From: an uncultured Actinomycetota bacterium
Lineage (GTDB): Bacteria; Actinomycetota; Actinomycetes; JAHEKZ01
Direction of reading: 5' to 3'
DNA length: 64,000 nucleotides
Assembly: GCA_963848085.1 (NCBI GenBank)
Contig: CAWKCE010000005.1
Coordinates: 146,282-210,281 of the forward strand
The notes beneath the pieces are model-generated. The model made no database searches and was not told the DNA's origin. It was given only the letters and a program-made list of their open reading frames with translations. This document shows positions 30,178 to 63,893 of the stretch, piece after piece. Numbering within the stretch: the stretch's first letter is position 1; every line of letters begins with the position of its first letter. A program made the position numbers and the translations under genes.

Positions 30178-30195
30178 CGACGTGCTCGAGCGCTG

Positions 30196-35609: not shown

Positions 35610-35616
35610 CCCCTAC

Positions 35617-35710
35617 CGCCGAGTGCGCACTCGCCGGACACCTTTCGTCGCCGAGTGTGCACCCGCAGGACACCTTTCGTCGCCGAGTGCACCGTGGCAG
35701 AGTGCGACCC
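35617..35710. repeat. three copies of a CGCCGAGTG(C/T)GCAC motif including the perfect palindrome CGAGTGCGCACTCG and direct repeat GGACACCTTTCGTCGCCGAGTG x2
   Basis: Seen directly in the convergent intergenic region between the aminotransferase and dsrE-like gene; same palindrome as at 4519-4605. Confidence 0.65.
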
Positions 35711-41110: not shown

Positions 41111-41120
41111 CTCCCGCGCC

Positions 41121-42062
41121 CTAGGTCCGCGGGGCGAGCAGCTCGTCGTGGCCACGGAACCGCTGCAGCAGCCGGTCGTAGGTCCGGCGCGACTCCCGGT
41201 CCCGGTAGGTCGGGTCCGAGTCGTGGTACCCGCGGTGCCGTTCCTGGTGGACCGGCAGCTCCCCGGCCGGCACGACGAGCCGCCCGCCAGCCTCGCGCAG
41301 CGCGAGCGACAGCTCCATGTCCGCGTTGCGGTAGAAGCGCGCCTTGGGGTGGGGGCCGCCGACCGCGAGCAGCGCGTCCCGCCGCACCGCCATGAGGTAG
41401 CCGAGCAGCGCATCCACCTCCCCGGTGCCGGCATCCACGAAGGACCGCCAGTTGTCGTCCAGGTCCACGTTGGTGCCGCGCCACCCGGCGGCGACGACCC
41501 CGGGCTCGGCCAGCGCCTCGAGCAGCGGTGTGACGGCGTCGCCATCGAGCACGCTGGACGGGTCCATGAGGACGTGGGTCGCCGCAGTGTCCAGCCGCAT
41601 CAACGCCTGGCGCGCCGGCCCCCAGCCAGCCTGCTGGGGGGTAGCGGCCACGTGCCACTCCTCGACCCGTCCCGGGTGCTCAGTTGCCAGGTCGTGCAGC
41701 GCCCGCCCCGCCCCGTCGACGTCACCCAGGTCCAGCCCGATCACGACGACGTCGGGCGGCGCGTGGGCCAGGAGCGCCGCCACGCACCGCACCAGGTCCT
41801 CCGGCCAGCCCTCGACGAGCAGCCCGACCGAGCAGCGACGCGTGTCCGGCTCGGCTGACCGGTCCGGCAGGTCGGCCAGCCCCCGGAGCACGTCGAACGG
41901 CGGCCGCGGAGCCAATGTGTAGCCGTCCGGCACGTCGGCCACGACCCAGCCGAGGTTCGCGATCTCGTCCCGGAGCACGTCGGCGGAGGCGAAGTCGCGC
42001 GCCGCCCTCGCTTCGGACCGACGGTCCGCCAGCTCCACGACCTCGCTCGGGGGTTCCGTCAC
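41121..42062 (-). CDS. hypothetical protein, possibly glycosyltransferase family 2-like
   Basis: ORF with weak GT-A-like features (LMDPSS..D); no confident family. Confidence 0.35.
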   Translation of the reverse strand: MTEPPSEVVELADRRSEARAARDFASADVLRDEIANLGWVVADVPDGYTLAPRPPFDVLRGLADLPDRSAEPDTRRCSVGLLVEGWPEDLVRCVAALLAHAPPDVVVIGLDLGDVDGAGRALHDLATEHPGRVEEWHVAATPQQAGWGPARQALMRLDTAATHVLMDPSSVLDGDAVTPLLEALAEPGVVAAGWRGTNVDLDDNWRSFVDAGTGEVDALLGYLMAVRRDALLAVGGPHPKARFYRNADMELSLALREAGGRLVVPAGELPVHQERHRGYHDSDPTYRDRESRRTYDRLLQRFRGHDELLAPRT

Positions 42063-42487
42063 GACAGCTGCACCAGCACCCGCGCCATCCCCAGCACCTT
42101 GTCGCCGGCGCAGGTGGCTGTCAGCTCCACCCGGGCCCGCCGGTCGTCCAGCAGCTCGGTGACCTTCGCGGACACGTCCAGCAGGGCCCCGACGGCGTCG
42201 TCGGGAACCGGCACCGGCCGGGTGAACCGCACGCTGTACTCCAGGACGGCGGCCGGGTCCGCGACCCAGTCGGTGACCACGCGGGCAGCCATCGCCATCG
42301 TGAGCATCCCGTGGGCGATGACGTCGGGCAGGCCGACCGACTGCGCGACCCGCTGGTTCCAGTGGATGACGTTGAAGTCGCCGGACGCGCCCGCGTACCG
42401 GACGAGGTCAGCGCGGGTGACCGGGAAGGACGCCGGGGGGAGCTCGGTACCCACAGCGACGTCGGCGTGCGCTACGGCAGCGGCCAC
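42059..42487 (-). CDS. MaoC-like (R)-specific enoyl-CoA hydratase/dehydratase (HadB-like)
   Basis: Hot-dog fold motif; paired MaoC genes downstream of rpmG as in other actinobacteria. Confidence 0.7.
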   Translation of the reverse strand: MAAAVAHADVAVGTELPPASFPVTRADLVRYAGASGDFNVIHWNQRVAQSVGLPDVIAHGMLTMAMAARVVTDWVADPAAVLEYSVRFTRPVPVPDDAVGALLDVSAKVTELLDDRRARVELTATCAGDKVLGMARVLVQLS

Positions 42488-42490
42488 CGG

Positions 42491-42943
42491 TCAGCCCTCC
42501 GACTCGACGGCACGGGCGACCAGCGTGGCGCGCACGGTGGCCACGGGCTCGCCGTCGGCCCCGGAGACGTCCGACCGGATGGCGAGAATGTCGTTGCCGG
42601 CGACCGTGCGGGCCGAGTCGACCGTGGCAACCACACTGAGCATGTCCCCGGCCGTGATGGGCCGGTGCAGCAGGAACTTCTGGTCGCCGTGCACCACGCG
42701 GGAGAAGTCCAGCCCCAGCTCAGGGTCGTCGATCACCGCCTTCTGCGGCTCCCGGGTGACGACCACGGCGAACGTCGGCGGCGCCACCACGTCGGCATGG
42801 CCGAGGGCGCGGGCGGCTTGGGCGTCGCGGTAGGCCGGGTTGGGGTCGCCGATCGCGTCGGCAAACTCGCGGATCTTCTCCCGCCCCACCTCGTATGTGG
42901 CCGGGGGGTAGGCGGCGCCCACCTTCTCCAGGTTCAGTGCCAT
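42491..42943 (-). CDS. MaoC-like dehydratase subunit (HadA-like)
   Basis: Hot-dog fold; adjacent to partner. Confidence 0.65.
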   Translation of the reverse strand: MALNLEKVGAAYPPATYEVGREKIREFADAIGDPNPAYRDAQAARALGHADVVAPPTFAVVVTREPQKAVIDDPELGLDFSRVVHGDQKFLLHRPITAGDMLSVVATVDSARTVAGNDILAIRSDVSGADGEPVATVRATLVARAVESEG

Positions 42944-43756
42944 CTACCCCATCCCTCCGAACTGGCCGCCGGTGACCGGGATGGTCACCCCGGAGACGAA
43001 GTCGCTGTCGGGCGAGGCGAGGAACGCGTGCACGTTGGCGACATCCTCCGGCTGGCCGAACCGCCCCAGCGCGATCATCCCGCGGATTGACCGACGGATC
43101 TCCTCGGGGATGCCGAGCGGGTCGGTCTCGGACTTGGGGGCGGTCAGCCGCGTCTCCACGAAGCCTGGGGCCACGGCGTTCACGTTGATGCCGAACGGTC
43201 CCAGCTCCTGTGCCAGGGTCTTGGTCAGCGCGATCAGCGCACCCTTGGCGGCGGTGTAGTTCGCCTGCCCCGGGTTGCCGGTCAGCGCGGCGACCGACGC
43301 GGTGAAGATGACCTTCCGGTGGTGGGAGGGGGCACCGTCGCGCTCGATCTCGGCCTTGGCGACGTCGCGCAGGAAGGGCAGCGCTGCCTGGGTGGTGTTC
43401 CACGCGGTCCGCAGGTTGGCGTCCAGCACGGATTCGAGGCCGGCCAGGTCCATCCGGTGGAACATCCGGTCGCGGGTGGTCCCGGCGTTGTTGACCACGA
43501 TGTCCAGCCGCCCGAAGTGCTCAATGGCGGTGGCCACGAGGGCCCCGGCGACCGATGGATCCGACGTCGAGCCGACGTGGGTAGCCGCGCGCCCTCCTGC
43601 CTCGGCGACCGCGGCGGCAGTCTCCGCGAGCGGCTCCGGGTCAAGGTCGTTCAGCGCGAGCAGGGCACCATCCGCGGCCAGCCGCCGGGCGGTGGCGCGC
43701 CCGATCCCCCGACCCGCGCCGGTGACCAGTGCAACCCGTCCGTCCAGGACGCCCAT
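42944..43756 (-). CDS. short-chain dehydrogenase/reductase (3-oxoacyl-ACP reductase-like)
   Basis: VTGAGRGIGRA cofactor motif, YxxxK. Confidence 0.8.
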   Translation of the reverse strand: MGVLDGRVALVTGAGRGIGRATARRLAADGALLALNDLDPEPLAETAAAVAEAGGRAATHVGSTSDPSVAGALVATAIEHFGRLDIVVNNAGTTRDRMFHRMDLAGLESVLDANLRTAWNTTQAALPFLRDVAKAEIERDGAPSHHRKVIFTASVAALTGNPGQANYTAAKGALIALTKTLAQELGPFGINVNAVAPGFVETRLTAPKSETDPLGIPEEIRRSIRGMIALGRFGQPEDVANVHAFLASPDSDFVSGVTIPVTGGQFGGMG

Positions 43757-43811
43757 GAACCGCCCTTCGTCGCTCGGAACCGCCGACCGCGCTCACGCGC
43801 GACCGGCTGGG

Positions 43812-43976
43812 TCAGCGGGTCTCGCGGTGCTCGGTGTGCTTGCCGCAGTTCGGGCAGAACTTCTGCAGCGCGATCCGGTCGGGGTCGTTGCGGCGGTTCT
43901 TGCGCGTGATGTAGTTGCGGTGCTTGCAGTCAGCGCACGCCATGGTGATCTTCGGGCGAACGTCGTTCTTGGCCAC
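43812..43976 (-). CDS. rpmG: 50S ribosomal protein L33 (GTG start)
   Basis: Hand translation (V)[53 protein letters not shown]. Confidence 0.9.
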
Positions 43977-44041
43977 CGGGTGCTCCCTGCTCGTTGGTAC
44001 TGCTGGTCGTTACTGCGGGTCGTTCTGGTCGGACGTCGAGG

Positions 44042-44118
44042 TGGTAGCGGAGGCCGGATTTGAACCGGCGACACAGCGATTATGAGCCGCTTGCTCTGCC
44101 AGGCTGAGCTACTCCGCC
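44042..44118 (-). tRNA. tRNA-Met (anticodon CAT; elongator or Ile2-lysidine type), CCA encoded
   Basis: GGCGGAGTAGCTCAGCCTGGCAGAGCAAGCGGCTCATAATCGCTGTGTCGCCGGTTCAAATCCGGCCTCCGCTACCA. Confidence 0.85.
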
Positions 44119-44171
44119 TGCCGAACCGGGCTCCGACCGCCTCGACGACGGCCGGGGACACCGGCCCCCAG

Positions 44172-44244
44172 AGCCCCAATACGGAATCGAACCGTAGACC
44201 TTCTCCTTACCATGGAGACGCTCTGCCGTCTGAGCTATTGGGGC
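44172..44244 (-). tRNA. tRNA-Thr (anticodon GGT)
   Basis: GCCCCAATAGCTCAGACGGCAGAGCGTCTCCATGGTAAGGAGAAGGTCTACGGTTCGATTCCGTATTGGGGCT. Confidence 0.85.
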
Positions 44245-44376
44245 GCGCTCGTGACAAGCCCCGCAAGGGTACACAGCAGGCATCCGGACCAGGTAATCGG
44301 TCGGCTGGGGCGGAGCCCCTGCCGTCTGCGGCCGGAACGCGCCGGACCCCCGGCACCAGGCCGGGGGTCCGAGGGG

Positions 44377-44458
44377 TGGCAGGTGTTGGATTCGAACCAA
44401 CGTAGGCTGAGCCGACGGATTTACAGTCCGCTCCCTTTGGCCACTCGGGCAACCTGCC
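44377..44458 (-). tRNA. tRNA-Tyr (anticodon GTA) with long variable arm
   Basis: GGCAGGTTGCCCGAGTGGCCAAAGGGAGCGGACTGTAAATCCGTCGGCTCAGCCTACGTTGGTTCGAATCCAACACCTGCCA. Confidence 0.85.
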
Positions 44459-44529
44459 TGGATTGCCATGACGGCGGTTGGCAGGATAGCGCAGCGCAAC
44501 TGCCCCCAGCCCCCCACCCGGAGGACCTC

Positions 44530-45021
44530 ATGGCCGACTCCTCGTTCGACATCGTGAGCAACGTCGACCGGCAGGAAGTGGACAACGCCCTCAACCAGGC
44601 CGCGAAGGAGATCTCGCAGCGGTTCGACTTCAAGAACACCGGGGCGTCGATCGCCTGGCAAGGCGAAATGGGCGTGGAGATCCGAGCCAACTCCGAGGAG
44701 CGGGCCAAGGCAGTGCTCGACCTGTTCCAGGACAAGCTGGTCAAGCGCAAGGTGTCGTTGAAGCACCTGGACGCCGGCGAGCCGCAGTCCAGCGGCAAGG
44801 AGTACCGGATCGCTGCGACGCTGACGCAGGGAATCTCGCAGGAGAACGCCAAGAAGATCGGCAAGATGATCCGCGACGAAGGCCCCAAGGGCGTCAAGGC
44901 CCAGATCCAGGGCGACGAGCTGCGGGTGTCGAGCAAGAAGCGGGACGACCTTCAGGCAGTGATCGCGCTGCTCAAGGGCAAGGACCTCGACGTCGCCCTG
45001 CAGTTCGTCAACTACCGGTAG
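44530..45021 (+). CDS. yajQ: YajQ family nucleotide-binding protein (UPF0234)
   Basis: [37 protein letters not shown]...; true start internal to ORF-track entry. Confidence 0.85.
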
Positions 45022-45039
45022 TCGACCGAGCCCGCCGCG

Positions 45040-46038
45040 ATGCCGCCGCCTCCCGACCCGTTTGTCGAGCACTCGCTGCGGACATCGCTGTTCTTCCCGC
45101 AGAGCCGACTGTTCGTCGCAGGCAACCCCAAGGCGGCCGGCACGAGCCTGCGCTGGTGGCTTCTGGAGGCCCACGGCGTGGACGTCGCTGCCGCCACCCA
45201 GGAGAGCCTGTGGGGTGAGTCCGCTCCGTTCCAAGCGGTCTGGGACGGCGCGGTGGACCTGCGGTTCACCTGGGACCGACTGTCCGACGTGGAGCGGGAG
45301 GACGCCCTGACCGCCACGGACGTGGTCACCGTCCAGCCAGTACGCCACCCGGTCACCCGTGCGTTCTCGGCCTGGGCCGGCAAGTACCTGACCGCCGAGC
45401 CGTACTACGTCGAGCGGCTGCCGTCGGGATTCGCCGCCCTGCCGGACAGTGTCGAGTCGGAGGAGCAGATTCGCGATCTGTTCACCGACTTCGTCACCGC
45501 TCTCGCCGGCCACGTCGTGGGCGGCGACTCATGGAGCGACATTGACGTCCACTTCTGGCCGCAAGCCCGACTGCTCGCCCGCCCGGCGGCGGGACAGACC
45601 CTGGTGCTCCGCCAGGAACAGCTCGCCGCGGGTCTGCGGCTCGTCGAGGCCCAGCTTCGGGAGCACGGCGTCGACGTCGAGCCGATGCCCCATGTGAACG
45701 AGAACGTGGTCTCGTACCGCGCCGACCTGGTCGACCCGGCCGCCGTCGAGCTGCTCGCGTCGCTGTACTCCGACGACTTCGAAGCCTGGGACTACCCGAC
45801 AACTGCCCCGCAGAAGCACGGGCGTCCCGTCGACCTGGACTGGCTCAACGACGTACGCGGCCGCAACCGCCGCTACGGCGTGGTGCACCGGGCCGCCACG
45901 GCCGAGCGTCACCGTGCCGAGCGCGCGGAACACGAGCTGGCCGCGGCCCGACGCCGGGAGACCGAGCTGACCGCCAGCCACTCGTGGCGGGTGACCCGCC
46001 CGCTGCGTTGGGCGTCGGAGCGGGCCAGACGGCGCTGA
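45040..46038 (+). CDS. hypothetical protein, possible sulfotransferase-family (PAPS-binding P-loop-like NPKAAGTS)
   Basis: 5'-PSB-like motif only; weak. Confidence 0.35.
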   Translation: MPPPPDPFVEHSLRTSLFFPQSRLFVAGNPKAAGTSLRWWLLEAHGVDVAAATQESLWGESAPFQAVWDGAVDLRFTWDRLSDVEREDALTATDVVTVQPVRHPVTRAFSAWAGKYLTAEPYYVERLPSGFAALPDSVESEEQIRDLFTDFVTALAGHVVGGDSWSDIDVHFWPQARLLARPAAGQTLVLRQEQLAAGLRLVEAQLREHGVDVEPMPHVNENVVSYRADLVDPAAVELLASLYSDDFEAWDYPTTAPQKHGRPVDLDWLNDVRGRNRRYGVVHRAATAERHRAERAEHELAAARRRETELTASHSWRVTRPLRWASERARRR

Positions 46039-46054
46039 CTTCGCCCCATTCGGA

Positions 46055-46915
46055 TCAGCGGTAGCCGGCCATCTCCTCGAGCCTCGCCACCCGGTCGGAG
46101 ATCGGGGGGTGCGTGGAGAACAGGTTCGCCATCCCGCCGACCCGGAACGGGTTGGCGATCATCAACGCGCTCGCGGTCTCCAGCTCGGGTGACGGCGCGA
46201 GCGGGGCGGCCTGCGTGCCCTGCTCCAGCTTGCGCAGGGCGCTCGCCAGCGCCATCGGGTCGCCCGTGATCGTGGCCCCCGTCTGGTCGGCCTGGTACTC
46301 CCGCGAGCGGCTGATCGCGAACTGCAGCAGCCCGGCCGCCACCGGCCCGAGGATCATGAGCAGCAGGGCCCCCAGCGGGTTGCCACGTCCTCCGCCGCGT
46401 CCACCCATGGGGATCAGCCACGCGAAGTTGGCCACGAAGACGATCACCGAGGCGAGTGTGGCCGCCACCGACGCGATGAGGATGTCGCGGTTGTAGACGT
46501 GCGCGAGCTCGTGAGCCAGCACGCCCTTCAGCTCACGGTCGTCGAGCAGCTGCAGGATGCCCTCCGTGCAGCAGACCGCTGCGTTCTGCGGGTTGCGACC
46601 GGTGGCAAAGGCGTTGGGGGCCATCGTCGGCGAGATGTACAGAGCAGGCATCGGCTGGTTCTGCCCCACGGCGAGGTTCTGGACCACCCGGTACATCGTG
46701 GGCTGCTCGGCCTCGGTCACCGGTCGCGCGTGCATGGCGCGCAGCGCGAGCTTGCCCGAGTTCCAGTAGGAGTACCCGTTCATCGCCAACGCGATCACGA
46801 GCGCGATGACCAGGCCGGTGCTGCCACCGAGCCACGCGCCGATGCCCAGGATGAGGGCGGACAGCCCGCCGAGGAGGACGGCCGTCTTCAGCCCGTTGAA
46901 GTAGTTGCGCTGCAT
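46055..46915 (-). CDS. htpX: zinc metalloprotease HtpX (M48); start Met at MQRNYFNGLKT, alternative TTG at 46945
   Basis: HELAHVYNRD HExxH motif and TM topology. Confidence 0.88.
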   Translation of the reverse strand: MQRNYFNGLKTAVLLGGLSALILGIGAWLGGSTGLVIALVIALAMNGYSYWNSGKLALRAMHARPVTEAEQPTMYRVVQNLAVGQNQPMPALYISPTMAPNAFATGRNPQNAAVCCTEGILQLLDDRELKGVLAHELAHVYNRDILIASVAATLASVIVFVANFAWLIPMGGRGGGRGNPLGALLLMILGPVAAGLLQFAISRSREYQADQTGATITGDPMALASALRKLEQGTQAAPLAPSPELETASALMIANPFRVGGMANLFSTHPPISDRVARLEEMAGYR

Positions 46916-47025
46916 CCCTTGGTTATAACCCGTCGACGGCTCCAAGTGCCAATGGGAACCGGCCAGGAAGACCGCCCTCGCTCGGACCTGGCGTCACGGC
47001 CACCATCAGCGCTCCCGGCGCGACC

Positions 47026-47949
47026 CTAGGGTTCGTGACCGATCCGATCGCTCGATCTGGGCGCTGCGTCGGGGATGCGGCGCCCCTCAAAGACGCCGAG
47101 CGCTCCCATGGCCCCGATCACGAGCACCGCACCCAGGGCCTGCCGAGCACCTAGCTTCTCGCCCAGAAGCAGCCCACTGAAGATGAGTCCGAACACCGGT
47201 ACCAACGTGAGGAACATGCCGGCGTGTGCCGCCGATGTGCGTCGAAGTCCCGCGACGTAGAAGAGGAAGGCGACGCCGTAGTAGAGGCCTCCGCCCAGAA
47301 TGGCGCTCAGCGTCTGTCCAGCAGTGGGAGTGTGCCAAGGCAGACGGATGGCACCGTCAACGGCCGCCACTGCCACGGCGAACGTCAGTGCTGCCACCTG
47401 CTGGACGAACACAACGCTGAGCGTCCCGTCGGCCAGGTGCATGCGGCGCAACAGAATCGAGTACAGCGCACACGCGAAGACGGCCGCGAATGTCAGAAGG
47501 ACGCCCGCGAGCGAGGTTGCGCTAGCAGGGCCCCCAACAATCAGGGTCACCCCCAGCATTGCCCCTGCCAGGCAGACGACCGCATATCCCGCGATGGTCT
47601 CGCGTAGGAAGATGAATGCCATCAGCACGATCAGGACCGGTTCCGTGGCCCAGATGATCACCGAGACTGAGGCGTCGATCCGCGCTAGCCCCAGCAGCCC
47701 GAGCGCGTAGGCGACTCCCGGGTTGAGTACGCCGAGCCACGCGATGCGAGCCGGCTGGTGCATCCCACGCAGGCTGGTCTTCGAGACCGAGACAAACCCC
47801 AGGAGCAGGAGAACGCTGACCAGCAACTGAAACGGAAGAAGCACGGTCGCGTCGTAGCCGCCAAGTGCGTACTTGCTGAGGACCGTGCCCAAGCCCCAAG
47901 AAGCGGCAGCTGCGATCAGGAAGGCGTGGTTTGTTCGTGCCTGGGACAT
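47026..47949 (-). CDS. EamA/DMT-family transporter
   Basis: 10-TM hydrophobic profile, two EamA-like halves; AGGAG SD. Confidence 0.75.
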   Translation of the reverse strand: MSQARTNHAFLIAAAASWGLGTVLSKYALGGYDATVLLPFQLLVSVLLLLGFVSVSKTSLRGMHQPARIAWLGVLNPGVAYALGLLGLARIDASVSVIIWATEPVLIVLMAFIFLRETIAGYAVVCLAGAMLGVTLIVGGPASATSLAGVLLTFAAVFACALYSILLRRMHLADGTLSVVFVQQVAALTFAVAVAAVDGAIRLPWHTPTAGQTLSAILGGGLYYGVAFLFYVAGLRRTSAAHAGMFLTLVPVFGLIFSGLLLGEKLGARQALGAVLVIGAMGALGVFEGRRIPDAAPRSSDRIGHEP

Positions 47950-48159
47950 GAGACTCCTGCGAGAAGAAGGGCGCGGCGCATCTGCTTGCCCTTAGTCAGC
48001 GCAGTCATCGCAGCAGTCGTACCCGGGCAGGCGCGGTCGACGGCCATCGCTCCGGTACATGTCTCGAACTGTAGGCCGGCACCCACCGGCAGGGAAGGGT
48101 GGACGTTCCTTGTCAGTCAGCCAAGCCGCGATCCCCGAGGGACCTTTGACGGCGGCTCA

Positions 48160-48385
48160 CTGCTATCCCCGGATGTCTGCACGTGGCTCAGGACAGACAT
48201 GCAGCGCCGCAGCCCGGCGCTGTCGGGCATTGACTGGGGCGCTCGATAACCCGGGACGATCACGAGCCTCCGTCGGCCGGCCGCCGCTGGCGAGACAGGT
48301 GAGGAGCGTGGGGTTACCCGCCCCGGTGCACCGCCCAGCGCTGTGTGAGGGCGAGGCGCACATAACGGCACCTCGGTTCGCTCGG
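48160..48385 (+). repeat. degenerate/composite copy of the 48-64 kb repeat family (conserved boxes GGATGTCT..., GTGGGGTT..., GCGCACATAACGGCACCTCGGTTCG; 5' module rearranged)
   Basis: Alignment by eye to copies at 50066, 52621 etc. Confidence 0.6.
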
Positions 48386-48393
48386 TGGCTCAT

Positions 48394-49592: not shown

Positions 49593-50057
49593 TCAGTCCA
49601 CGACGCTCGGGTTGTCGTCTGGGTTAAACACCGCGATCTCGTCGGCGTTGAGGTCGCACTCTTCTGGGAGGTCGAGGGTGACATCGGCTGAGTCGGGCCG
49701 GGAGTAGCCACCTGTGCCCTTCACCGTCTGCCCCTCGGCGACCAGCGCGCCGGACGGCAGGCGCACCGAGAGCGGGTCGTCGTCCACGAGCTCAGTGCCG
49801 CTGGGCCAGATCGCCGCGACCACCCGGTCCGGTGCATCTGGAGATGCCAGGCCGACGCATCCGTTCTTCACGGTCAGCGTGCCGGCGATCAGCGCATCTA
49901 CGCCTCCTCGGGGCAGCAGGGAGCCGTCATGGACGAGCAGGGTGGCGCTCCCCTGCGTCGTAACCGACTGCCCGCCGCCGCATCCGCTCACCGACGCACT
50001 CAGCACCAGAGCGACGATCACCGGTCCGATGGTCCTCTTGACCTGGATAGCCCCCAC
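49593..50057 (-). CDS. hypothetical lipoprotein (GTG start; signal peptide with VSGC lipobox)
   Basis: N-terminal KRTIGPVIVALVLSASVSGC. Confidence 0.55.
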   Translation of the reverse strand: MGAIQVKRTIGPVIVALVLSASVSGCGGGQSVTTQGSATLLVHDGSLLPRGGVDALIAGTLTVKNGCVGLASPDAPDRVVAAIWPSGTELVDDDPLSVRLPSGALVAEGQTVKGTGGYSRPDSADVTLDLPEECDLNADEIAVFNPDDNPSVVD

Positions 50058-50065
50058 GCGATTCA

Positions 50066-50197
50066 GAATGCCGGATATCGCGCGGATCCGGGACCGGAGC
50101 CAGGGGGTGTCTTAACGATGTGTGGGGTTGCCGGCCTGCGTGCACCGCCCAGACGCTGTGTGAGGGCGAGGCGCACATAGCGGCACTTCGGTTCGGT
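50066..50197 (+). repeat. repeat family copy 1 (reference copy): 5' hairpin CCGGAT-N7-ATCCGG, box GAGCCAGGGGGTGTCTTAACGATGTGTGGGGTT, GC-rich variable centre, 3' box GCGCACATAGCGGCACTTCGGTTCGG
   Basis: Seen directly; non-coding (reading frames not conserved between copies). Confidence 0.85.
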
Positions 50198-50280
50198 CGA
50201 CCGCCGGCTCGTCAGAGGAAATGATCTCCGTTAATGGACACTCACGTCGTAGCAGTTCTGGGGAGGCCCGCTGGTCGGAG

Positions 50281-52306: not shown

Positions 52307-52620
52307 TGAAGCGCTGAGCCGGAACGTATGACGGCTCCAGCCGAGCGGGGGGAGAGTCCTACCGGTACTACTCGGGTAGCCGGATGACGGAGTGTCAGCA
52401 TGTCGGCCGCGTGGCCGACGAGTTCTCGACGGCCACGCCAAGTCTGACGGCATCGAGCCGCAGTCGCGCTGGCCCCTGCTGGCCGGCCACTGCGGCCAGG
52501 GGCGCTGACCGGCTGCCTAACCGCAGAGACATCACAGAGCGGGACGCAGCTACCGACCGTCTTGGTGCCGCTCACCTGGTGCTCCGACTGCTCCGCCCGC
52601 GTCGGTGCAGTTGAGCAGCC

Positions 52621-52766
52621 TAATGCCGGATCTTGGGCGGATCCGGGACGACGAGCCAGGGGATGTCTTCACGATGTGTGGCGTTACCCGCCCCGGTGCA
52701 CCGCCTCGGGGCATCGCCCAGGCGCTCCGCGAAGGCGCGGGGCATAACGGCACATCTGCGCGTCGC
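52621..52766 (+). repeat. repeat family copy 2 (longer variable centre)
   Basis: taatgCCGGATcttgggcGGATCCGGGAC...GAGCCAGGGGATGTCTTCACGATGTGTGGCGTT...GGCATAACGGCACATCTGCG. Confidence 0.85.
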
Positions 52767-54357: not shown

Positions 54358-54540
54358 CCACAGGCTGGAGCGGAGCCCGGCCCGGGCCCGGAGCGAGCGA
54401 GCCACGGACCGGACCCGCGCACGGCCTGTAGACCCAACGGCCCATGCCTTGCCGTCCCCCTTGTCGGCGTAGGTTGCGGTGGCCAGTCGGTCGGCGAAGC
54501 GGTGCCCAGTCACGCGCACACTTTGCCAGTGCCAGCCGCG

Positions 54541-54677
54541 CATACTGCCGGATATTGCGAGCAAACGGGACGGGGGCCCAGGGGGTGTCTTAATGATGTG
54601 TGGGGTTCGCCGCCCCGGTGGCCCCGCCCCCAAGCTCCGTGTGGTAGGAGCGCACATAACGGCACCTCTGTTCGGGC
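54541..54677 (+). repeat. repeat family copy 3
   Basis: catactgCCGGATattgcgag...CCCAGGGGGTGTCTTAATGATGTGTGGGGTT...GCGCACATAACGGCACCTCTGTTCGGG. Confidence 0.85.
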
Positions 54678-54771
54678 TCGGACTGAAGAGACGACCTGAT
54701 CCTGGCGGCACCCAGCGGTGGGTCCGCCCTGCTAGAGGGCCGGTCCCTCGGCGCTCGTTCATGCATGACTG

Positions 54772-56913: not shown

Positions 56914-56990
56914 CGCGCATACTGCCGGTGATCTCAACCGGTCGATGCAACACCCTCGTTGTTTGGGGGTCGTGTCGTCGGGAGGTTGGG
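56914..56990 (+). repeat. relic partial copy of the repeat family (shares 15-mer CGCGCATACTGCCGG with copy 3)
   Basis: Seen directly; rest diverged. Confidence 0.4.
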
Positions 56991-57120
56991 ATGGTCAGGT
57001 TGTCGGTGGAGGAGAAGGCGGAGATTCGGAAGTTGGCGGGGGCGTAGCGGCCCAATGGCTCGGCGCGTCGCAGCTATAGAGTCACAACCCACGAGTCGTG
57101 CGAGGCGAAGGAGACTTGCG

Positions 57121-57591
57121 GTGGAGATCAAGGAACTCGGGCACCTGGTTCTCTACGTGCGCGACCTCAAGGCGTCGGTGCACTTCTACCGCGACGTCCT
57201 GGGCTGGCGACCGATCCTCGGCGGAGACGACGACGAACCGCTGCCGTTTCCGGCCGCCGCCTTCAACGCGCCGTCCAACCGCACCCACCACGAGCTGCTG
57301 CTCATCGAGGTCGGCAAGGACGCCACTGCGATCCCGCACGGCCGACGCGTGGGTCTGTACCACTTCGGCCTCAAGGTCGGCGACAGCGACGACGAGCTGC
57401 GCGAGGCACTCGCCACACTGCAGGAGAACGACGTTACGATCCTCGGTTCCAGCGACCACACGGTGACGCACAGCCTCTACATCGCCGACCCCGACGGCAA
57501 CGAGGTCGAGCTGTTCATCGACGTCCCCGGCGTCGACTGGAAGAACGACCCGGCGCTCATCGCCGCCCCGGTCAAGCCCCTCGTGCTCTGA
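57121..57591 (+). CDS. VOC/glyoxalase-family protein (GTG start, AAGGAGA SD)
   Basis: (V)EIKELGHLVLYVRDLKASVHFYRDVLGW...HHELLLIEV...GLYHFGLKV pattern. Confidence 0.75.
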   Translation: MEIKELGHLVLYVRDLKASVHFYRDVLGWRPILGGDDDEPLPFPAAAFNAPSNRTHHELLLIEVGKDATAIPHGRRVGLYHFGLKVGDSDDELREALATLQENDVTILGSSDHTVTHSLYIADPDGNEVELFIDVPGVDWKNDPALIAAPVKPLVL

Positions 57592-57709
57592 ACGAGCCCG
57601 CTGATCCTGACAAGGACGTCTATCCTTCCAACGCCGGGCGCTAACTCCCCGCGACGGTCAGTGGGCGCCGATCCCGAGCGGGCCGCCAGTGTGACGGATC
57701 AATGAGCGC

Positions 57710-57843
57710 GAATGCCGGATATTTGGCGGCCCCGGGACCACGAGCCAGGGGATGCCTTAACGATGTGTGGGTTTGCCGGCCCAGGCGCCCCGCCCAGGCG
57801 CTCCGCGAGGGCGGGGCGCCGACAACGACACGTCGGTTCGGGT
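57710..57843 (+). repeat. repeat family copy 4
   Basis: GAATGCCGGATatttggcGGCCCCGGGACcacGAGCCAGGGGATGCCTTAACGATGTGTGGGTTT...CGGTTCGGG. Confidence 0.85.
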
Positions 57844-58381
57844 TGGGCCTGCCGTGACACCCGGTTTCAGCTCGGGCCGTGCCACCGGACTTCAGCCACT
57901 TCCGACCGGGACGCTCTTGAGACCAGCGGACCGGACGACTGGTGTATGCCCAGGTCGTCGGCGGTGACCCGTCACCCAAGGGCGCCGAGCAGACCGAGTC
58001 GGCAAGCCCCGGTGCTCCTCATGCCGACATTCGCCCGAGGCTGACCTTGCGTACAACAGGTCAGTCGGCCGCAAGGCGCCAGGGTTCGCCCGCCGACGCT
58101 CATCGTCCGCCAGGCGCTTCGTCGCGACCGGGTCAACGACGCTAGGACCGGCGAAACGGTCATACAACGAGCGACGGCCACCAAACAGGCACAGGCGCCA
58201 TCCCAAGGCCTCCCCCGCAACCCCACACCAGTTGGTCCTTCTCGGCTTCCCGCCTCCGGGGCATTCCCTCTGGACACCCGAGACGCTAGACAGCCTGACC
58301 CGGCGCTATCCGGCTCTCGACATCGAGCCGTGGCTGGCCGCTGCGCCCTTGGACTGATCACGGCCACGCACTGAGGGCGAG

Positions 58382-59113
58382 TTACGACTCCAGCTCCCAC
58401 AGCTTGCGGTAGTAGGCGATCCGTTCCTCGTCCGGTTCGATTCCGTAGGACTCGAAGAACTCACCTTGATGGCCTTCACCGAAGTTCCAGTCGAGGCTCA
58501 AGGAGGCGATGGCCAGGTCCGCCCATCGGTCGCCCACCGCCAAGTCACCGAAGTCGACGTTGCCCGTCCACTCCCCGGAGGACGAGATCAGCGTGTTGGG
58601 TGCACACGCGTCCCCGTGGACAACCACCGGCTCATCCACTGGGGGGCGGGGGCCGATCGATGGAGGCGTGCGACCGACCCAGACCTCCGATGTCCAGCCG
58701 GCTGGGAAATCATCGGTGGGGATCGAATGAATAGATCGAAGGCCCACGGCGATGGCCCGGATCGCCTCCGGCCGACGGGCGCGCCAGTTGTCTCCGACAG
58801 CGTGCTCGCCGGGCAGCGCCTCGGTGACAAGCCACTGGGCCGCCTCGTCCCCGCCGAAGTCGAGCACCCGCGGAGCCGGATGGCGCTTCGAGATCCACTC
58901 GAGCCGCACCTTCTCTCGCCCCAGATCAACACCGGCCGACCGCGGATACCACTTCACATACGTATCGCCGGCACAGAAGGTCAGACCGCCAAGTTCGCTG
59001 CGCCAGATGAGGTCCTTGGGACGCGCCCCGGCTAGCTGGACCACGATGTCCGGCACGGGATCATCCCCCAGGGAGTGAAGGGCATCCAGGTCCGAGAGGT
59101 CGCTTCCCGTCAT
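58382..59113 (-). CDS. aminoglycoside phosphotransferase (APH family, APH(3')-like); alternative TTG start at 59146
   Basis: VVHGDACAPNTLI and VDFGDLAVGDRWADLAIA motifs (Brenner and DFG-like). Confidence 0.8.
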   Translation of the reverse strand: MTGSDLSDLDALHSLGDDPVPDIVVQLAGARPKDLIWRSELGGLTFCAGDTYVKWYPRSAGVDLGREKVRLEWISKRHPAPRVLDFGGDEAAQWLVTEALPGEHAVGDNWRARRPEAIRAIAVGLRSIHSIPTDDFPAGWTSEVWVGRTPPSIGPRPPVDEPVVVHGDACAPNTLISSSGEWTGNVDFGDLAVGDRWADLAIASLSLDWNFGEGHQGEFFESYGIEPDEERIAYYRKLWELES

Positions 59114-59317
59114 GGCATCAGGTTCCCCGTCGCGCGGGCGTTTCAACTATTCCCGCCCGCTGGCCTTGCGAGCAGCGACCTCGACGCGGACGTGGTACGC
59201 CTTCCACCGACAGGCCAGCCGGCCTGTCGGGTCGCCGGGACCGAAGGCCTGCCCATGCCCACGGACCCGACACAAGACGGTCAGGTGCGCCGATAATCGG
59301 ACCCACGTGACGGCGGT

Positions 59318-60025
59318 TCAGTTCTTCGTCGCAGGGGACTGGGCGACGCATACGACTCCGGTGTTGCCGTCCTGGTCGGCGATCACGGTGAGCGACGGCG
59401 CGTCGCTGTCATCGACGACCGTCCCACCCGCGGCGACGGCCGCGGCGATTCGTTGCTCGGCCACCTCGGGCGCCACATAGACCTCGACGTGGAACCGCTG
59501 ACGCGGGGTCTCGTGCTCGTCGGCGTCCCCGAACCACAGGTTCGGTACCCGACCCGTGGCGTCCCGGATCTCGTCGCTGGGGGACCCGTGGCCCTGGGCT
59601 CCGGCGTTCCCGGTCAGCAGGGCGGCCCACACCGGGGCGATGGTCGCGGAGTGCGCCGTGTCGAGGCCGAGCTCGATGACGCTGACCGAGGCGGGGTCGG
59701 CGTCGACCTTGTGCTCGGCGGCGATCTCGGTGATCCGTCGCGCGAGGTCGACGTCCTGCTGGGTCACCCATTCGACGACGTGTTCGGTGCCCTCGTCGTC
59801 GCGGTAGATGGCGTCGGCGCTGACCAGCTTGAGGTCGACGTACCCGTCGCCGATCGCCACGCTCGGGTGGTGTCCGAGCGCGTCGCCCGCCTCGCCTACC
59901 GTGGCGACGAACCGTGCGCCGGTGCCGAAGTCGTCGACCAGGTAGCGGGCATGCAGTCCCTGTGCCAGCTTGCGCCAGTCGGTCAGCTTGGCCTCGGCGA
60001 TCTCCTCGCCCTTCAGCATGTCCAT
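59318..60025 (-). CDS. fusion protein: pterin-4a-carbinolamine dehydratase (PCD/DCoH) domain + VOC/glyoxalase-like domain
   Basis: N-terminal ...LTDWRKL...GDALGHHPSVAIGDGYVDLKLVS (E-x-HHP-like motif); C-terminal glyoxalase-like half. Confidence 0.6.
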   Translation of the reverse strand: MDMLKGEEIAEAKLTDWRKLAQGLHARYLVDDFGTGARFVATVGEAGDALGHHPSVAIGDGYVDLKLVSADAIYRDDEGTEHVVEWVTQQDVDLARRITEIAAEHKVDADPASVSVIELGLDTAHSATIAPVWAALLTGNAGAQGHGSPSDEIRDATGRVPNLWFGDADEHETPRQRFHVEVYVAPEVAEQRIAAAVAAGGTVVDDSDAPSLTVIADQDGNTGVVCVAQSPATKN

Positions 60026-60182
60026 GTTCGGGGACCCTAACTGTGATTCAGCCGAAGCGGGGCTGGGTGCGCCGCGGGGCCCTGACTGCGCGTCAGCTGC
60101 GCTTTGCGTCGATCGCTCGGTCGACGATGTTCCCTCCGGAATATCGCCACGTCCAAATCCCGCCCGACCACCGGCGATGCCT

Positions 60183-60295
60183 CATGCCGGATACTGCGCG
60201 GATCCGGGACCGGGCCAGGGGATGTCTTGACGATGTGTGGGGTTAGCCGCCCCGATGCTCTGTGAGGGGGCGCACATATCGGCACTTCAGCGCAG
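60183..60295 (+). repeat. repeat family copy 5 (shortest)
   Basis: catgCCGGATactgcgcGGATCCGGGACcGGGCCAGGGGATGTCTTGACGATGTGTGGGGTT...GCGCACATATCGGCACTTCAGCG. Confidence 0.85.
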
Positions 60296-60367
60296 GTCCT
60301 CTGACCGTCCGGTGTGCCCTCATTGAGTGTCCATGCTGGTGTGCCTGACACGAGGTCGCTGGTTGCC

Positions 60368-61690
60368 CTATGCCGTCGGGTCGACGACGTGTCCGACGAA
60401 GACCGGCGTTTGAGTGGGTTCGTGGACCACTGCCCAGGCGTACGGCCGGTCTACTCCCATCGTCTTCGTGGTGATGGGACCTGAGACAAGCATTCCGATA
60501 CCGGTGACGGCGGCAGCTTCGGACCCTTCCTCGTCGACGGTGATGTTCGCGCGATGAACTGCCTGGCTGACCGTCACTCCGGGAGCAATACCGGTGAGGT
60601 CACCCAGACTGCTGAGACCCAGCGCGCTCAGCGCACTCAGCAGCTCCAAGTCCGTGCCGGTGTCCCAGCGAGGCAGGGTGAGGTCCACCGCTTGGGTCGC
60701 GTCGGCCGCTACCGGGGCGGTGGCGACCGGCAACAGAGCGTTCAGGGCGGGCAGGTCGCGCACCACGGTTCGCGGGAGCACGACGCGCATGGTCAGCTCG
60801 TCGCCGACGTACGGCAGGGTGATCCGTTGCCACCGGTCGTTCTCGGTGTACCGGACTGGCTCGGTCGTCTGGCGCATCATCTGTGCCTGCACTGACGAGC
60901 CGGCGGAGGTTGTGAAGAGTCCGGTTGTGGTGGCTGAGGCGGAGAACTGGGTGACCCAGGTGGCCTTGAGGTAGACGGCGTTGGCGAGCACCATCAGCGT
61001 GTTGGGGTCGAGCTGGTCGAAGAGTCTCTTGATCCGGCCGTGAGTCTGCTTCGTCACCCAGGCGTTGATGGTCTCTGTCGCTGCCGGGGAGCCGAAGTCC
61101 ACACTGTCTGGGTGCGCTCCGTACTGGGCAGCGAGCAGGTCGAGGAATGGCTGTTCGACCGAAGGTCCGAATCCGTCAGCCACGAACAGCCCGTTGGCGA
61201 CCGCGACCACGGGGGTCGGGGCCGGCTGCTCGCTCGGTGGCGGTGGCGGGGTCACCAGGTGCGCCGTGAGTGCGTTCAGAGCCTGGTGCGGTGAACCTTC
61301 GGCGCGGTTGCTCGGCGGAAAACCAAACACAGCGTCGATCTGGGTGGCAGTCTCCCCGCGACTTCCCGCGCGCAACATCCCGAAGGCCACCGCGATCGAC
61401 AGCGGCGACACGGTGAAGTTGGCTGACGGTGCGGCAGCAAGAGCGTGCAGATGCGAGGCAAACGCGTCCATCCCCGCCACAACTTCGGGCAGGTCGGGCG
61501 CTTCGGACAGCGAGACGACGGCTCTGTCGACCTGGGACACCCTGATCGGCCCCGCTGGTCCACCTCCACCCGGGGCCGCTGACTGGGAACACCCCACCAG
61601 GGCCGGCGCCGCCCCGACTGCGAGGAGACCGAGCATCGTGAGCATGGTCCGACGAGAGAGCAGTTCGGCCGAGCGGTCAACCGGTTGCAT
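60368..61690 (-). CDS. serpin-family serine protease inhibitor with Tat-like/lipoprotein signal; true start internal to 482-aa ORF
   Basis: NAVYLKATWVTQF..., RCL-like C-terminal region; N-terminal SRRTMLTMLGLLAVGAAPALVGC. Confidence 0.7.
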   Translation of the reverse strand: MQPVDRSAELLSRRTMLTMLGLLAVGAAPALVGCSQSAAPGGGGPAGPIRVSQVDRAVVSLSEAPDLPEVVAGMDAFASHLHALAAAPSANFTVSPLSIAVAFGMLRAGSRGETATQIDAVFGFPPSNRAEGSPHQALNALTAHLVTPPPPPSEQPAPTPVVAVANGLFVADGFGPSVEQPFLDLLAAQYGAHPDSVDFGSPAATETINAWVTKQTHGRIKRLFDQLDPNTLMVLANAVYLKATWVTQFSASATTTGLFTTSAGSSVQAQMMRQTTEPVRYTENDRWQRITLPYVGDELTMRVVLPRTVVRDLPALNALLPVATAPVAADATQAVDLTLPRWDTGTDLELLSALSALGLSSLGDLTGIAPGVTVSQAVHRANITVDEEGSEAAAVTGIGMLVSGPITTKTMGVDRPYAWAVVHEPTQTPVFVGHVVDPTA

Positions 61691-61872
61691 CAAGAACGGC
61701 CACCTTCCCCTACTCCACCTACGACGACTGGGCGACCTCGCCCGTTCCTCGACGCCGCAAGTACCTCCCGACATGCGGAAACACAGCCGACCTCCGCCAC
61801 TCGGTGGCGGCAGCACAGTGGTGGCGTGTCAACAATCGGTGCCAACTGTCGCACGCGCCGCCCAGGCAAACC

Positions 61873-61993
61873 GAATGCCGGATGCCGGGCTGTTCCGGGG
61901 AGAAGCGAGTCAGGGGACGGATGGGCGATGTGTGGGGTCGCCCGCCAGGTGCTCTACGAGGCCGGCGAGGCACACATGACGGCGCATCTGCAC
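61873..61993 (+). repeat. repeat family copy 6 (more diverged)
   Basis: GAATGCCGGATgccgggctgTTCCGGGGAgaagcGAGTCAGGGGAcGGATGGGCGATGTGTGGGGTcg...GCACACATGACGGCGCATCTGC. Confidence 0.8.
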
Positions 61994-62019
61994 CGGGTCC
62001 GATCCAGATCCGAGTTGCG

Positions 62020-62481
62020 CTAGTCCTCGATGACATCCAGACCCTGCTCTCGGAGCAGTGCCAAGCGATCGAGCATGCCCTTCAGCACTTCCGGGGAGTG
62101 CCCCTCCCACTTCTCCACCTCGCTGACTACCAGCAGCGGATGGCGGGTGCGGTAGGACTGTGTGATGTTGCCGGGGAACTTCTTGTTCGTCACGTTGGGG
62201 TCGTCCTCGAAGGGGCCGGTGGGCCTGACGACATAGATGTAGCCCCGCTCTCCGGTACCCGCGCGAGCAGTCGCCAGCTCCGCCCCCCATGCCGCGGTGT
62301 CCACGAGCGCGGTGAAGTAGATGTTGTTCGACACCCTGCCTTCGTGGAAGTTGGAGCCGTAACCGGGCAGGAGCTCTTCTCCGACCGTGAGCGCGGATTT
62401 CGTTCCGTGGTAGAAGGGTCCCTCGATGTGGTCGCAGTTCTCGTAGGTAACCGGAATGTGCGTGCTTCTGGGTTCTTCCAC
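62020..62481 (-). CDS. arr: NAD(+)--rifampin ADP-ribosyltransferase (Arr); GTG start; the 317-aa ORF-track entry is over-extended
   Basis: EGPFYHGTKSALTVGEELLPGYGSNFHEGRVSNNIYFTALVDTAAWGAELA...GYIYVVRPTGPFEDDPNVTNKKFPGNITQSYRTRHPLLVVSEVEKWEGH matches the Arr family along its length; GAGAGGA SD. Confidence 0.85.
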   Translation of the reverse strand: MEEPRSTHIPVTYENCDHIEGPFYHGTKSALTVGEELLPGYGSNFHEGRVSNNIYFTALVDTAAWGAELATARAGTGERGYIYVVRPTGPFEDDPNVTNKKFPGNITQSYRTRHPLLVVSEVEKWEGHSPEVLKGMLDRLALLREQGLDVIED

Positions 62482-62665
62482 ACGTGTCCTCTCGAATTCA
62501 TCCGACGCTCTGGGTGGCACCCGAATCTGGCGGCTATCACCTACGGCCGGGTCGGCAGGCGCGAACGATACAACGCCCCTCAAGGGAAGCACGCCAGACA
62601 TTCCTTGGCCCGGGTCCCGAAGGACCCATGACCCTCGTCCGCCCAACCCTGGAATAGTCCCTGTC

Positions 62666-62965
62666 ATGGGCGACCCGCCGGAACTTCGCCACAGCGGACA
62701 CTGGAGGATCGCTGTTTGGGCCCTTCGAGTGGGGTACGTCGGGCTGGCCGTCGCCATTGCCGGCCTCATCGTGACGTCGTTGGGATACACGCCGTGGGTG
62801 CTGGCCGTTGGGGTGATCATTTGGCTCGCCGCCGCAGCCGTCACGTTGGCGGGGTTCTTCTGGTCCCGGCACGAGCTTCCCGAGCCACGACCTGGGTTCT
62901 GGTCGATGCGGTTCATGCTCGTCCACGACACGGTCCACGCCCAGTCGCCGTCCCAGCGGTCCTGA
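62666..62965 (+). CDS. hypothetical small membrane protein (2 TM helices)
   Basis: MGDPPELRHSGHWRIAVWALRVGYVGLAVAIAGLIVTSLGYTPWVLAVGVIIWLAAAAV... Confidence 0.4.
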   Translation: MGDPPELRHSGHWRIAVWALRVGYVGLAVAIAGLIVTSLGYTPWVLAVGVIIWLAAAAVTLAGFFWSRHELPEPRPGFWSMRFMLVHDTVHAQSPSQRS

Positions 62966-63070
62966 CAGCCCATTCCTCGGCCGCTGCGTCCGCCGTACGC
63001 CAGTCTCCCGACTCGTCCACCGACCCGGATGTGCCACCACCGATCGGCTTCGAAGGGTGCCCCGTATCAC

Positions 63071-63190
63071 TGGAAATTGGGGACTTCCGGGACTCACGAG
63101 TCAGGAGATGTCCTCGCGACCTGTGGGGTTCCCCGCCCACCGCCCGGGCGCTCCGCGAGCTACGGGGAACACATACCCGCACATCTTGCG
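63071..63190 (+). repeat. repeat family copy 7 (5' hairpin module diverged)
   Basis: ...TTCCGGGACtcacGAGTCAGGAGATGTCctcGCGAcctGTGGGGTTcc...ACACATAcccGCACatcttgcg. Confidence 0.75.
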
Positions 63191-63267: not shown

Positions 63268-63621
63268 ATGGGCCTGGAATGGGAGCAAGTGGTCGTGGAC
63301 GCCGCAGACCCGGTGATGTTGGGCCGGTGGTGGGCTAACGCCCTCGGATGGGTCGTGGTGAACGACGCGCCGGAAGAGTTCGAGATACAACCCGCGGCGG
63401 ATCGGCTGCCCGGACTGATCTTCGAACCAGTCGGAGAGGCGAAGGGCGGCAAGAACCGTCTTCACTTGGACTTCCGGCCCGACGACCAGCAGGCCGAAGT
63501 CGCGCGCCTCCTGGGCCTCGGCGCTCGGCACGCGGACGTCGGCCAGGGACAGCAGTCCTGGGTCGTGCTGGCAGATCCCGAAGGCAACGAGTTCTGTGTG
63601 CTGTCATCCAAACGCACGTAG
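63268..63621 (+). CDS. VOC/glyoxalase-family protein (bleomycin-resistance/glyoxalase I-like fold)
   Basis: MGLEWEQVVVDAADPVMLGRWWANALGW...RLHLDF...VVLADPEGNEFCV. Confidence 0.7.
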   Translation: MGLEWEQVVVDAADPVMLGRWWANALGWVVVNDAPEEFEIQPAADRLPGLIFEPVGEAKGGKNRLHLDFRPDDQQAEVARLLGLGARHADVGQGQQSWVVLADPEGNEFCVLSSKRT

Positions 63622-63709
63622 CCACCTCAGCCTCCGTCCATGCTCGGTAGGCGACGGCAGCCAATCCAACTGGGGGCAGTCCGGGCTGTCCGGCACCCGA
63701 GCGATCGTC

Positions 63710-63835
63710 CCGGATGTTGGCCGGCTCCGGGACCCACGAGTCAGGGATGTCCCAGCGATGCGTGAGGTTGGCTGGTGAAGGGACGCCCCTCCAATTGGAG
63801 AGCCAGTCGCGTGCGCACAGAACGGCACTGCGGGG
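63710..63835 (+). repeat. repeat family copy 8
   Basis: CCGGATgttggccGGCTCCGGGACccacGAGTCAGGGATGTCccagCGATGcGTGAGGTT...GCGCACAGAACGGCACTGCGGGG. Confidence 0.8.
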
Positions 63836-63893
63836 CGGTCAGTTTGGACCAGCTGAAGGCGGTCTGGCTCTGGCCGGGGCCGGTCTCGTTCGA

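Follow-up and report, generated by a model that had tools for sequence, protein, structure and literature searches.

A predicted rifamycin ADP-ribosyltransferase gene in a variable, repeat-punctuated gene array of an uncultured actinomycete

Integron arrays are headed by the tyrosine recombinase IntI, the attI site, and the Pc promoter, and their cassettes are mostly single, promoterless, co-oriented open reading frames (ORFs). The attC site is an imperfect palindrome of 57-141 nt with R'' and R' cores at its ends. Among the well-known integron cassettes are arr-2 and arr-3. Two further systems bear comparison: integrase-less genomic islets that accumulate in tandem at an att site, and the modules of Acinetobacter plasmids that are bounded by pdif, 28-bp recombinase sites of alternating orientation. 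Here we describe an arr gene, and the gene array around it, in a stretch of 64,000 nt (the window) from an uncultured actinomycete (contig CAWKCE010000005.1, positions 146,282-210,281 of the forward strand). The encoded Arr enzyme would move ADP-ribose from NAD+ onto rifamycins, and so protect an RNA polymerase of the rifamycin-sensitive type.

Actinomycetes are regarded as a reservoir of many resistance genes. To our knowledge, how small accessory genes move within their chromosomes is poorly understood. In the window, arr lies in an array of gene blocks separated by co-oriented repeats. Taken as a whole, the account that we favour, with confidence a little above even, is that a probably active arr gene resides in a variable array, the co-oriented elements of which serve as sites where blocks are gained and lost.

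The arr gene and its product

The arr block contains these features:

62020-62481, minus strand: arr coding sequence, 153 aa, GTG start, TAG stop (Pfam, NCBIfam, and PDB alignments; metagenome gene calls)
62487-62493, minus strand: Shine-Dalgarno-like GAGAGGA, 5 nt upstream of the GTG (read from the sequence)
62482-62665: divergent intergenic region of 184 nt between arr and the 99-aa ORF, presumably holding both promoters (sequence)
62612-62627: palindrome GGGTCCTTCGGGACCC, perfect 6-4-6, within that intergenic region
62666-62965, plus strand: divergent 99-aa gene, predicted two-helix membrane protein (metagenome gene calls, homologues)

An earlier, sequence-only reading had assigned the C-terminal part of a 317-aa ORF to the Arr family, and had proposed a gene of ~153 aa with a GTG start after GAGAGGA. 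Both proposals hold. The 153-aa product matches the entire Pfam PF12120 (Arr-ms) profile (positions 1-99 of 99; E 4e-40; 136.4 bits against a gathering cut-off of 25 bits) as well as the NCBIfam equivalog NF033144, rifampin_ARR (179.9 bits; curated cut-off, 130 bits). The start codon is the GTG at 62481-62479 (minus strand). Gene callers returned the identical 153-aa product on three independent metagenome contigs, and Arr homologues, 153-160 aa long, are colinear with it from residue 1. A domain search gave no family match for the part of the 317-aa ORF that lies upstream of this start; that part overlaps a conserved gene on the opposite strand.

The product aligns without gaps to two known structures: ARR-2 (PDB 9IBA; 58% identity over 146 aa) and Arr-ms of Mycolicibacterium smegmatis (PDB 2HW2; 54% identity). 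In the latter alignment, His25, Tyr55, and Asp94 correspond to His19, Tyr49, and Asp84 of Arr-ms, which we take to be the catalytic residues. The Arr-ms structure paper, by Baysarowich et al. in 2008, is said to give a catalytic role to these three. The window Arr therefore resembles both proteins in family, length class, His/Tyr/Asp positions, and predicted NAD+-dependent ADP-ribosylation of rifamycins. Context sets them apart: ARR-2 is integron-borne and Arr-ms has a mycobacterial chromosomal setting, whereas the window arr has neither. We have little doubt, from these matches, that arr encodes a genuine NAD+-rifamycin ADP-ribosyltransferase of the Arr family. The gene is probably active in the cell, and a rifamycin-inactivation phenotype is a reasonable prediction.

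The window Arr scores 191 bits against ARR-2 and 142 bits against Arr-ms, and has an N-terminal extension in common with ARR-2. Since it scores higher against ARR-2, the arr-2 lineage may possibly derive from an environmental actinomycete gene such as this one.

The drug target is encoded in the same window, 32 kb from arr (rpoB; 26356-30195, minus strand). In the rifampicin-resistance region, the equivalents of D516, H526, and S531 (presumed residue numbering, also for the following) are unchanged and of the sensitive type; N518T and S522A are differences from the Mycobacterium tuberculosis protein. With the sensitive-type residues unchanged, a rifamycin-inactivating enzyme would be meaningful for the cell. 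Over its C-terminal 500 aa, RpoB shares no more than 88% identity with any named organism (a Mycobacteriales metagenome-assembled genome, Streptosporangiaceae). The host is an uncultured soil actinomycete, and its arr is chromosomal.

Arr had also been described as a single-gene module. Instead, the block comprises two genes, arr and the divergent membrane-protein gene, because this conserved 99-aa ORF sits between arr and the next repeat upstream (63055-63188). It is called in eight metagenome contigs and has 147 homologous cluster representatives (91 at E<=1e-10); it adjoins arr in none of the other arr loci checked. The 184-nt region upstream of arr contains no match to the sigma-70 consensus. 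Its palindrome could be an operator, although it is not common to other arr loci: comparison of 84 arr upstream regions revealed no common 9-mer and no common long palindrome. The known rifamycin-associated element (RAE) is a 19-bp inverted repeat upstream of actinomycete rifamycin resistance genes, including mycobacterial arr; upstream of the window arr, the 6-4-6 palindrome at 62612-62627 was the only such feature seen.

Repeats and gene blocks of the array

The array spans at least 16 kb and begins past a tRNA cluster (44042-44458) and four conserved genes, the last of which encodes an EamA protein. Repeat finding, alignment, and nhmmer together identified nine copies of a ~140-nt repeat between 48246 and 63840, all intergenic and all on one strand. 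A profile built from the copies and run with nhmmer over the 64-kb window finds them with E values of 1e-22 to 1e-39:

48246-48389, plus strand: terminal, half-degenerate copy beside the EamA flank (E 2.5e-22)
50055-50199, plus strand: repeat copy (E 3e-39)
52611-52763, plus strand: repeat copy (E 1e-34)
54533-54683, plus strand: repeat copy (E 3e-34)
57697-57848, plus strand: repeat copy (E 1.5e-36)
60169-60297, plus strand: repeat copy, 70 nt after the serpin stop (E 1e-31)
61864-61998, plus strand: repeat copy between arr and serpin, 21 nt after the arr stop (E 1e-24; also alignments)
63055-63188, plus strand: repeat copy at the other boundary of the arr block, 574 nt upstream of the arr start (E 1e-28)
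63694-63840, plus strand: last repeat copy in the window (E 6e-26)
Contig L001, 2784-2860: partial repeat copy ~400 nt past the window end (nhmmer E 5e-6)

The copies are 60-90% alike, and their consensus, read in the direction of arr, is GTGCCGTTATGTGCGCCCCGCCC...GGGCGG...GGCAACCCCACACATCGTTAAGACATCCCCTGG...GTCCCGGATCCGCCCAATATCCGGCATT. The core pattern has seven matches in the window and none in 100 shuffles. The profile search found no copy at positions 1-48000, which hold core genes (rpoBC, ribosomal proteins). The copy at 48246-48389 is well kept only in the arm GCACCGCCC..GAGGGCG..CACATAACGGCAC. A repeat just after the arr stop had already been noticed, and it belongs to a real family. 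The distance given for it, 27 bp, becomes 21 nt here because the repeat boundary was chosen differently; it had been counted as the sixth copy, and is the seventh, unless the degenerate copy at 48246 goes uncounted, which makes it the sixth.

The repeats bound blocks of one to four unrelated genes in either orientation. In the array, 13 of the 18 genes point the same way as arr and five the opposite way. At six junctions, taken in the arr direction, the element lies 5-90 nt past the stop codon of the gene before it. The blocks carry the following cargo:

Zinc-dependent alcohol dehydrogenase (zinc-ADH) and a lipoprotein
PD40 protein and an extracytoplasmic function (ECF) sigma factor
DUF1801 protein and a lipoprotein
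S51 peptidase, RibD_C protein, YCII protein, and a glyoxalase
APH(3')-like kinase and a pterin-dehydratase/glyoxalase fusion
VOC protein
60368-61690, minus strand: serpin gene, in the next block in the direction of arr (Pfam Serpin; orthologues 86% and 81% identical)

This cargo is rich in genes of resistance or detoxification type (58382-59146, minus; 56959-57591, plus; 59318-60025, minus; 63268-63621, plus). The APH(3')-like kinase scores 146 bits, below the NCBIfam cut-off of 205. There are three proteins with the VOC/glyoxalase fold, one of them fused to a pterin-4a-carbinolamine dehydratase domain. The ~530 nt from the APH stop to the next repeat (57849-58381) are probably non-coding or a decayed gene; the sole ORF there (57972-58400) is Arg/Cys-rich with no family match, and was judged non-coding. 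The GC content at third codon positions (GC3) is 0.82 for array genes versus 0.91 for the adjacent core genes, a gap that expression level alone could explain.

The array shares several properties with integrons and with clusters of attC sites lacking integron-integrases (CALINs): co-oriented ~140-nt repeats separate unrelated accessory or resistance-type genes, a repeat closely follows the last gene of a block (here, arr), and content varies among close relatives while the flanks are conserved. A classical integron would make the repeats attC sites, and arr a promoterless cassette inserted by IntI; the cassette status of arr-2 and arr-3, and the slightly closer match of the window Arr to ARR-2, are in keeping with this. 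However, the attC signature (RYYYAAC...GTTRRRY for R''/R') occurs in 0 of 9 repeats on either strand, and the repeats are not long imperfect palindromes. RNA and single-stranded DNA folding, together with alifold, of this repeat family and of the related one described below gave only local hairpins and no covariation, and folding z-scores (-2.0 to +0.7) are not significant; an attC-like, structured single-strand recombination site is therefore not supported. No tyrosine recombinase or integrase is present among the annotated, GC3-supported ORFs of 44-64 kb or in the next 3.6 kb (contig L001), and the array head may lie further away; neither attI nor Pc was seen. Moreover, the blocks, unlike integron cassettes, are multi-gene, run in both orientations, and have upstream regions of their own, as arr has its 184 nt and its ribosome-binding site. 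No complete integrons are known from Actinobacteria (PMC4889954, PMC9024848). The integron model is thus contradicted on two defining features; the array is not an integron, and we give the notion of an IntI-inserted cassette next to no credence. Of the cassette interpretation offered by the sequence-only reading, the integron mechanism falls, and what stands is a looser, cassette-like turnover of blocks.

Related arrays and block turnover

The closest Arr in the databases (P0123; 87% identical by BLAST, 89% over the trimmed alignment) is encoded on contigs L004-L007. These carry at least 10 co-oriented copies of a ~175-nt element homologous to the window repeat. Four blocks are common to the two elements, with their order and their orientation relative to arr preserved: GTGCCGTTAT, CAACCCCRCACATCG, TCGTYAAGAC, and CAATATCCGGCA. 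The longer element has ~60 extra bases in its middle. Apart from arr, the cargo (cation efflux, hydrolase, isochorismatase, hemerythrins, TetR, cupin, methyltransferase, S8 peptidase) is entirely different from that of the window. The two array-borne Arr proteins are sisters in a neighbour-joining tree of 84 sequences. In L004, only 6 nt separate the end of one copy from the ATG of arr, and this ATG lacks a ribosome-binding site.

Insertion sequences (IS) are associated with L004 repeats. An IS30-like element (HTH_38 plus rve; L004 4644-5858; inverted repeats GGTGATCTCAA/TTGAGATCACC) lies exactly within the 3' end of a repeat (ATTCGG|...|GGCAGTATG), with a 3-bp overlap at the junction, and is missing from contigs 99.9% identical (L131 and L115 compared). 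A second L004 repeat (~2283-2372) ends in the same inverted repeat, which suggests that the IS30-like element targets repeat ends. A complete repeat has its 5' end ~10 nt past the stop of an IS110-family (DEDD) transposase gene (L004 148-1311). Either the edge of the repeat was the insertion site of this IS, or repeat and IS end are related; the contig breaks off before the left part of the IS. IS elements that target these repeats recall the IS1111-attC elements known for attC sites.

The core pattern of the window repeat has no match among 185,579 species representatives (one genome per species), and two scans of viral contigs with both repeat families returned nothing. In a metagenome collection, a degenerate core pattern gave at least six true loci (L115, L127, L131, L150, L177, and L205); most of the 120 listed were chance matches.

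A sister species shows how the array changes. Its contigs L205 and L219 (99.7% identical to each other) have core proteins 75-97% identical to those of the window, and a serpin 86% identical. They are colinear with window positions 40100-47980 (tRNAs, DUF520, sulfotransferase, M48 peptidase, EamA), and colinearity resumes at the serpin. The EamA-serpin interval comprises 12.4 kb with six repeats and ~13 other genes in the window, and 3.5 kb with one full and two partial repeats and three other genes (lipoprotein, zinc-ADH, DsrE) in the sister species. The sister zinc-ADH is only 26% identical to that of the window and is on the opposite strand. In both species the copy adjacent to EamA is a half copy that retains the same arm. 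Homology between window and sister species covers the serpin and ~130-170 nt upstream, and ends ~40 nt before the repeat that follows arr; upstream of the sister serpin, neither repeat nor arr is present, and the genes there are an ABM gene and one of 211 aa. In a third species (serpin 81% identical), other genes again, as well as an IS21, lie upstream of the serpin. Gene blocks thus turn over between sister genomes while the flanks stay. That this is a variable array with repeats at its block junctions we consider likely.

In distant relatives (L221 and L222; serpin 69-71% identical), the serpin lies in a whiB-ponA...crp-nth core neighbourhood with DsrE nearby. Because of this core setting, and because serpin and DsrE are adjacent within the L219 array, a serpin(-DsrE) unit was apparently transferred to the array from a place in the core genome.

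Could arr nonetheless be an ancient chromosomal gene, inherited vertically in conserved synteny? Its closest relatives are all Actinomycetota (68-89% identity), and its GC content (0.62) and GC3 (0.83) are like those of its neighbours. By the same identities, the window Arr belongs among the chromosomal actinobacterial Arr proteins, and is evidently not a recent import from Proteobacteria; near relatives number in the thousands in soil metagenomes. Yet the neighbours differ in every related arr locus examined, the sister species has no arr at this position, and identity is flat across Actinomycetes, Acidimicrobiia, and Coriobacteriia (~72-83%), not tracking taxonomy. Eighty arr loci from named genomes (among them Geodermatophilus, Modestobacter, Blastococcus, Frankia, Tessaracoccus, Ilumatobacter, and Acidimicrobiia and Coriobacteriia metagenome-assembled genomes) encode Arr proteins 68-83% identical to that of the window, and show neither of the two repeats nor a similar array. 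Vertical inheritance in conserved synteny, which the sequence-only reading had set against itself as the counter-case, is therefore very improbable: synteny around arr is not conserved, and a sister lacks the gene at this position.

Two other kinds of repeat occur in the window, both away from the array. Nine tandem 18-nt units (GAGCCGCCTCAACGACCG-like; 12504-12711) lie inside a minus-strand ORF (12503-13453) of the ribosomal-protein region, and represent a 6-aa repeat in a housekeeping-region protein. A second, unrelated intergenic family (CCGAGTGCGCACTCGACGGGGCTGGGTGTCC-like; 3386-3512, 4521-4598, and 35616-35698) is found in the core region, and is partly tandem with 32-nt spacing.

What the repeats may be

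Several identities for the ~140-nt repeat were examined and set aside. A coding function is rejected because indels across the copies break the frame. An ECF-type promoter (GGGAT-N18-GTT, plus strand) is rejected because downstream genes often have the opposite orientation. A tRNA fragment, a dif/Xer site, and a DnaA box have, by eye, only 5-6 bases in common with it.

The main rival to a recombination site is an element that does no more than occupy a variable region, either as a selfish repeat or as a regulatory unit. The selfish form would be a non-autonomous repeat, such as a miniature inverted-repeat transposable element (MITE), a repetitive extragenic palindrome (REP), or something like a palindrome-associated transposable element (PATE), in a region variable for other reasons; arr would lie beside a copy by chance. 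Like MITE and REP sequences, the window repeat is short and non-coding, with many diverged copies (their similarity is that expected after an old burst) and imperfectly complementary ends. These ends (8 bp; TGCCG..TAT / ATA.CGGCA) pair in 79% of cells, versus 19-44% in slid controls, with no compensatory change. The positions of the IS30-like element and the IS110-family gene suggest that repeat ends behave like sites recognised by transposition machinery. Against this, all nine window copies and at least 10 of 10 L004 copies are co-oriented (for nine, a chance of 0.004 if orientation were random), no target-site duplications were found around the repeat copies, and no copy occurs in the 48 kb of adjacent core DNA or at the 80 other actinobacterial loci; within the 64 kb, the repeat is confined to the array. 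Genes between repeats are replaced, not just interrupted, between sister species, and in both a half copy lies at the edge of the array. The selfish and the regulatory reading are both weakened by strict co-orientation, by the lack of copies in adjacent DNA, and by gene replacement between sisters; we hold the selfish one to be unlikely.

The regulatory alternative is a cis-acting expression element, kept because it is useful: a terminator or insulator, perhaps with an outward promoter, or a small RNA. Its position shortly after the preceding stop at six junctions fits this role, as does a GC-rich hairpin in the 5' half (a perfect 12-bp stem in copy 57697-57848). In two species, the repeat beside the array's last gene retains this half alone. 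In L004, where arr has a leaderless-compatible ATG, a transcript could start at the element end. However, neither covariation nor significant z-scores support a structured RNA; Rfam searches of the window array and L004, at gathering and permissive (E<=5) thresholds, gave only tRNAs and one chance YrlA match. The copies that flank arr have no sigma-70-like promoter and no U-tract terminator, and at four or five junctions the neighbours are wrongly oriented for a terminator or promoter role. A purely regulatory element would also leave unexplained both a co-orientation that is independent of gene direction and a position at indel boundaries. We judge it quite unlikely.

We return to recombination at the repeats. 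The most economical mechanism would be that units of block plus element are gained and lost through recombination at the elements. Either a recombinase encoded elsewhere acts on the element, in the manner of tandem genomic islands that accumulate at an att site, or homologous recombination takes place between element copies. The GC-rich hairpin half of the element may additionally terminate transcription of the preceding gene. As in islet accretion and pdif modules, there are direct repeats at every junction, blocks vary in size and orientation, and full units are internal, with a half unit at the edge by the conserved flank; a tRNA cluster is nearby. Differences are also apparent. No integrase or Xer-type site was recognised in the window array, pdif sites are short and alternating whereas these repeats are ~140 nt and co-oriented, and the partial copies at both ends keep the same arm, which is not expected from a simple attL/attR model.

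Several observations weigh against our favoured account. Because no recombinase was found, the mechanism of mobility can only be inferred, and the folding results above offer it no help. Breakpoints between species lie ~40-60 nt off the repeat ends, near but not exact. A generic variable region would account equally well for the sizes of the blocks and the mixed orientation of their genes. Near-identical strains from several samples all have the window gene order; the array is therefore stable on short time scales, and no rearrangement has been caught in the act. As to the gene, Arr activity is predicted, and another arr or some other rifamycin determinant may be present elsewhere in the genome. 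On balance, we put the proposition that the repeats are recombination sites at slightly less than an even chance.

A bolder proposal is that the co-oriented ~140-175-nt elements are the recombination sites of a hitherto undescribed system by which Actinomycetota capture genes, functionally analogous to the integron. Such a system would comprise a recombinase acting in trans, module-plus-site units, and a chromosomal array; its site differs from that of the integron, and its enzyme probably would as well. We regard this as rather unlikely, but if true, the system would trade arr, APH-like kinases, and VOC/glyoxalase genes among soil actinomycetes.

The arr gene is a novel sequence in a known family, and by itself adds little. 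Its importance lies in the context: two lineages with an oriented element at block junctions, and sister arr genes in both arrays. If the element is a recombination site, it would give the phylum to which the rifamycin producers belong a way to gather and reshuffle genes for resistance and detoxification, and would supply a sequence tag for finding such cargo in metagenomes.

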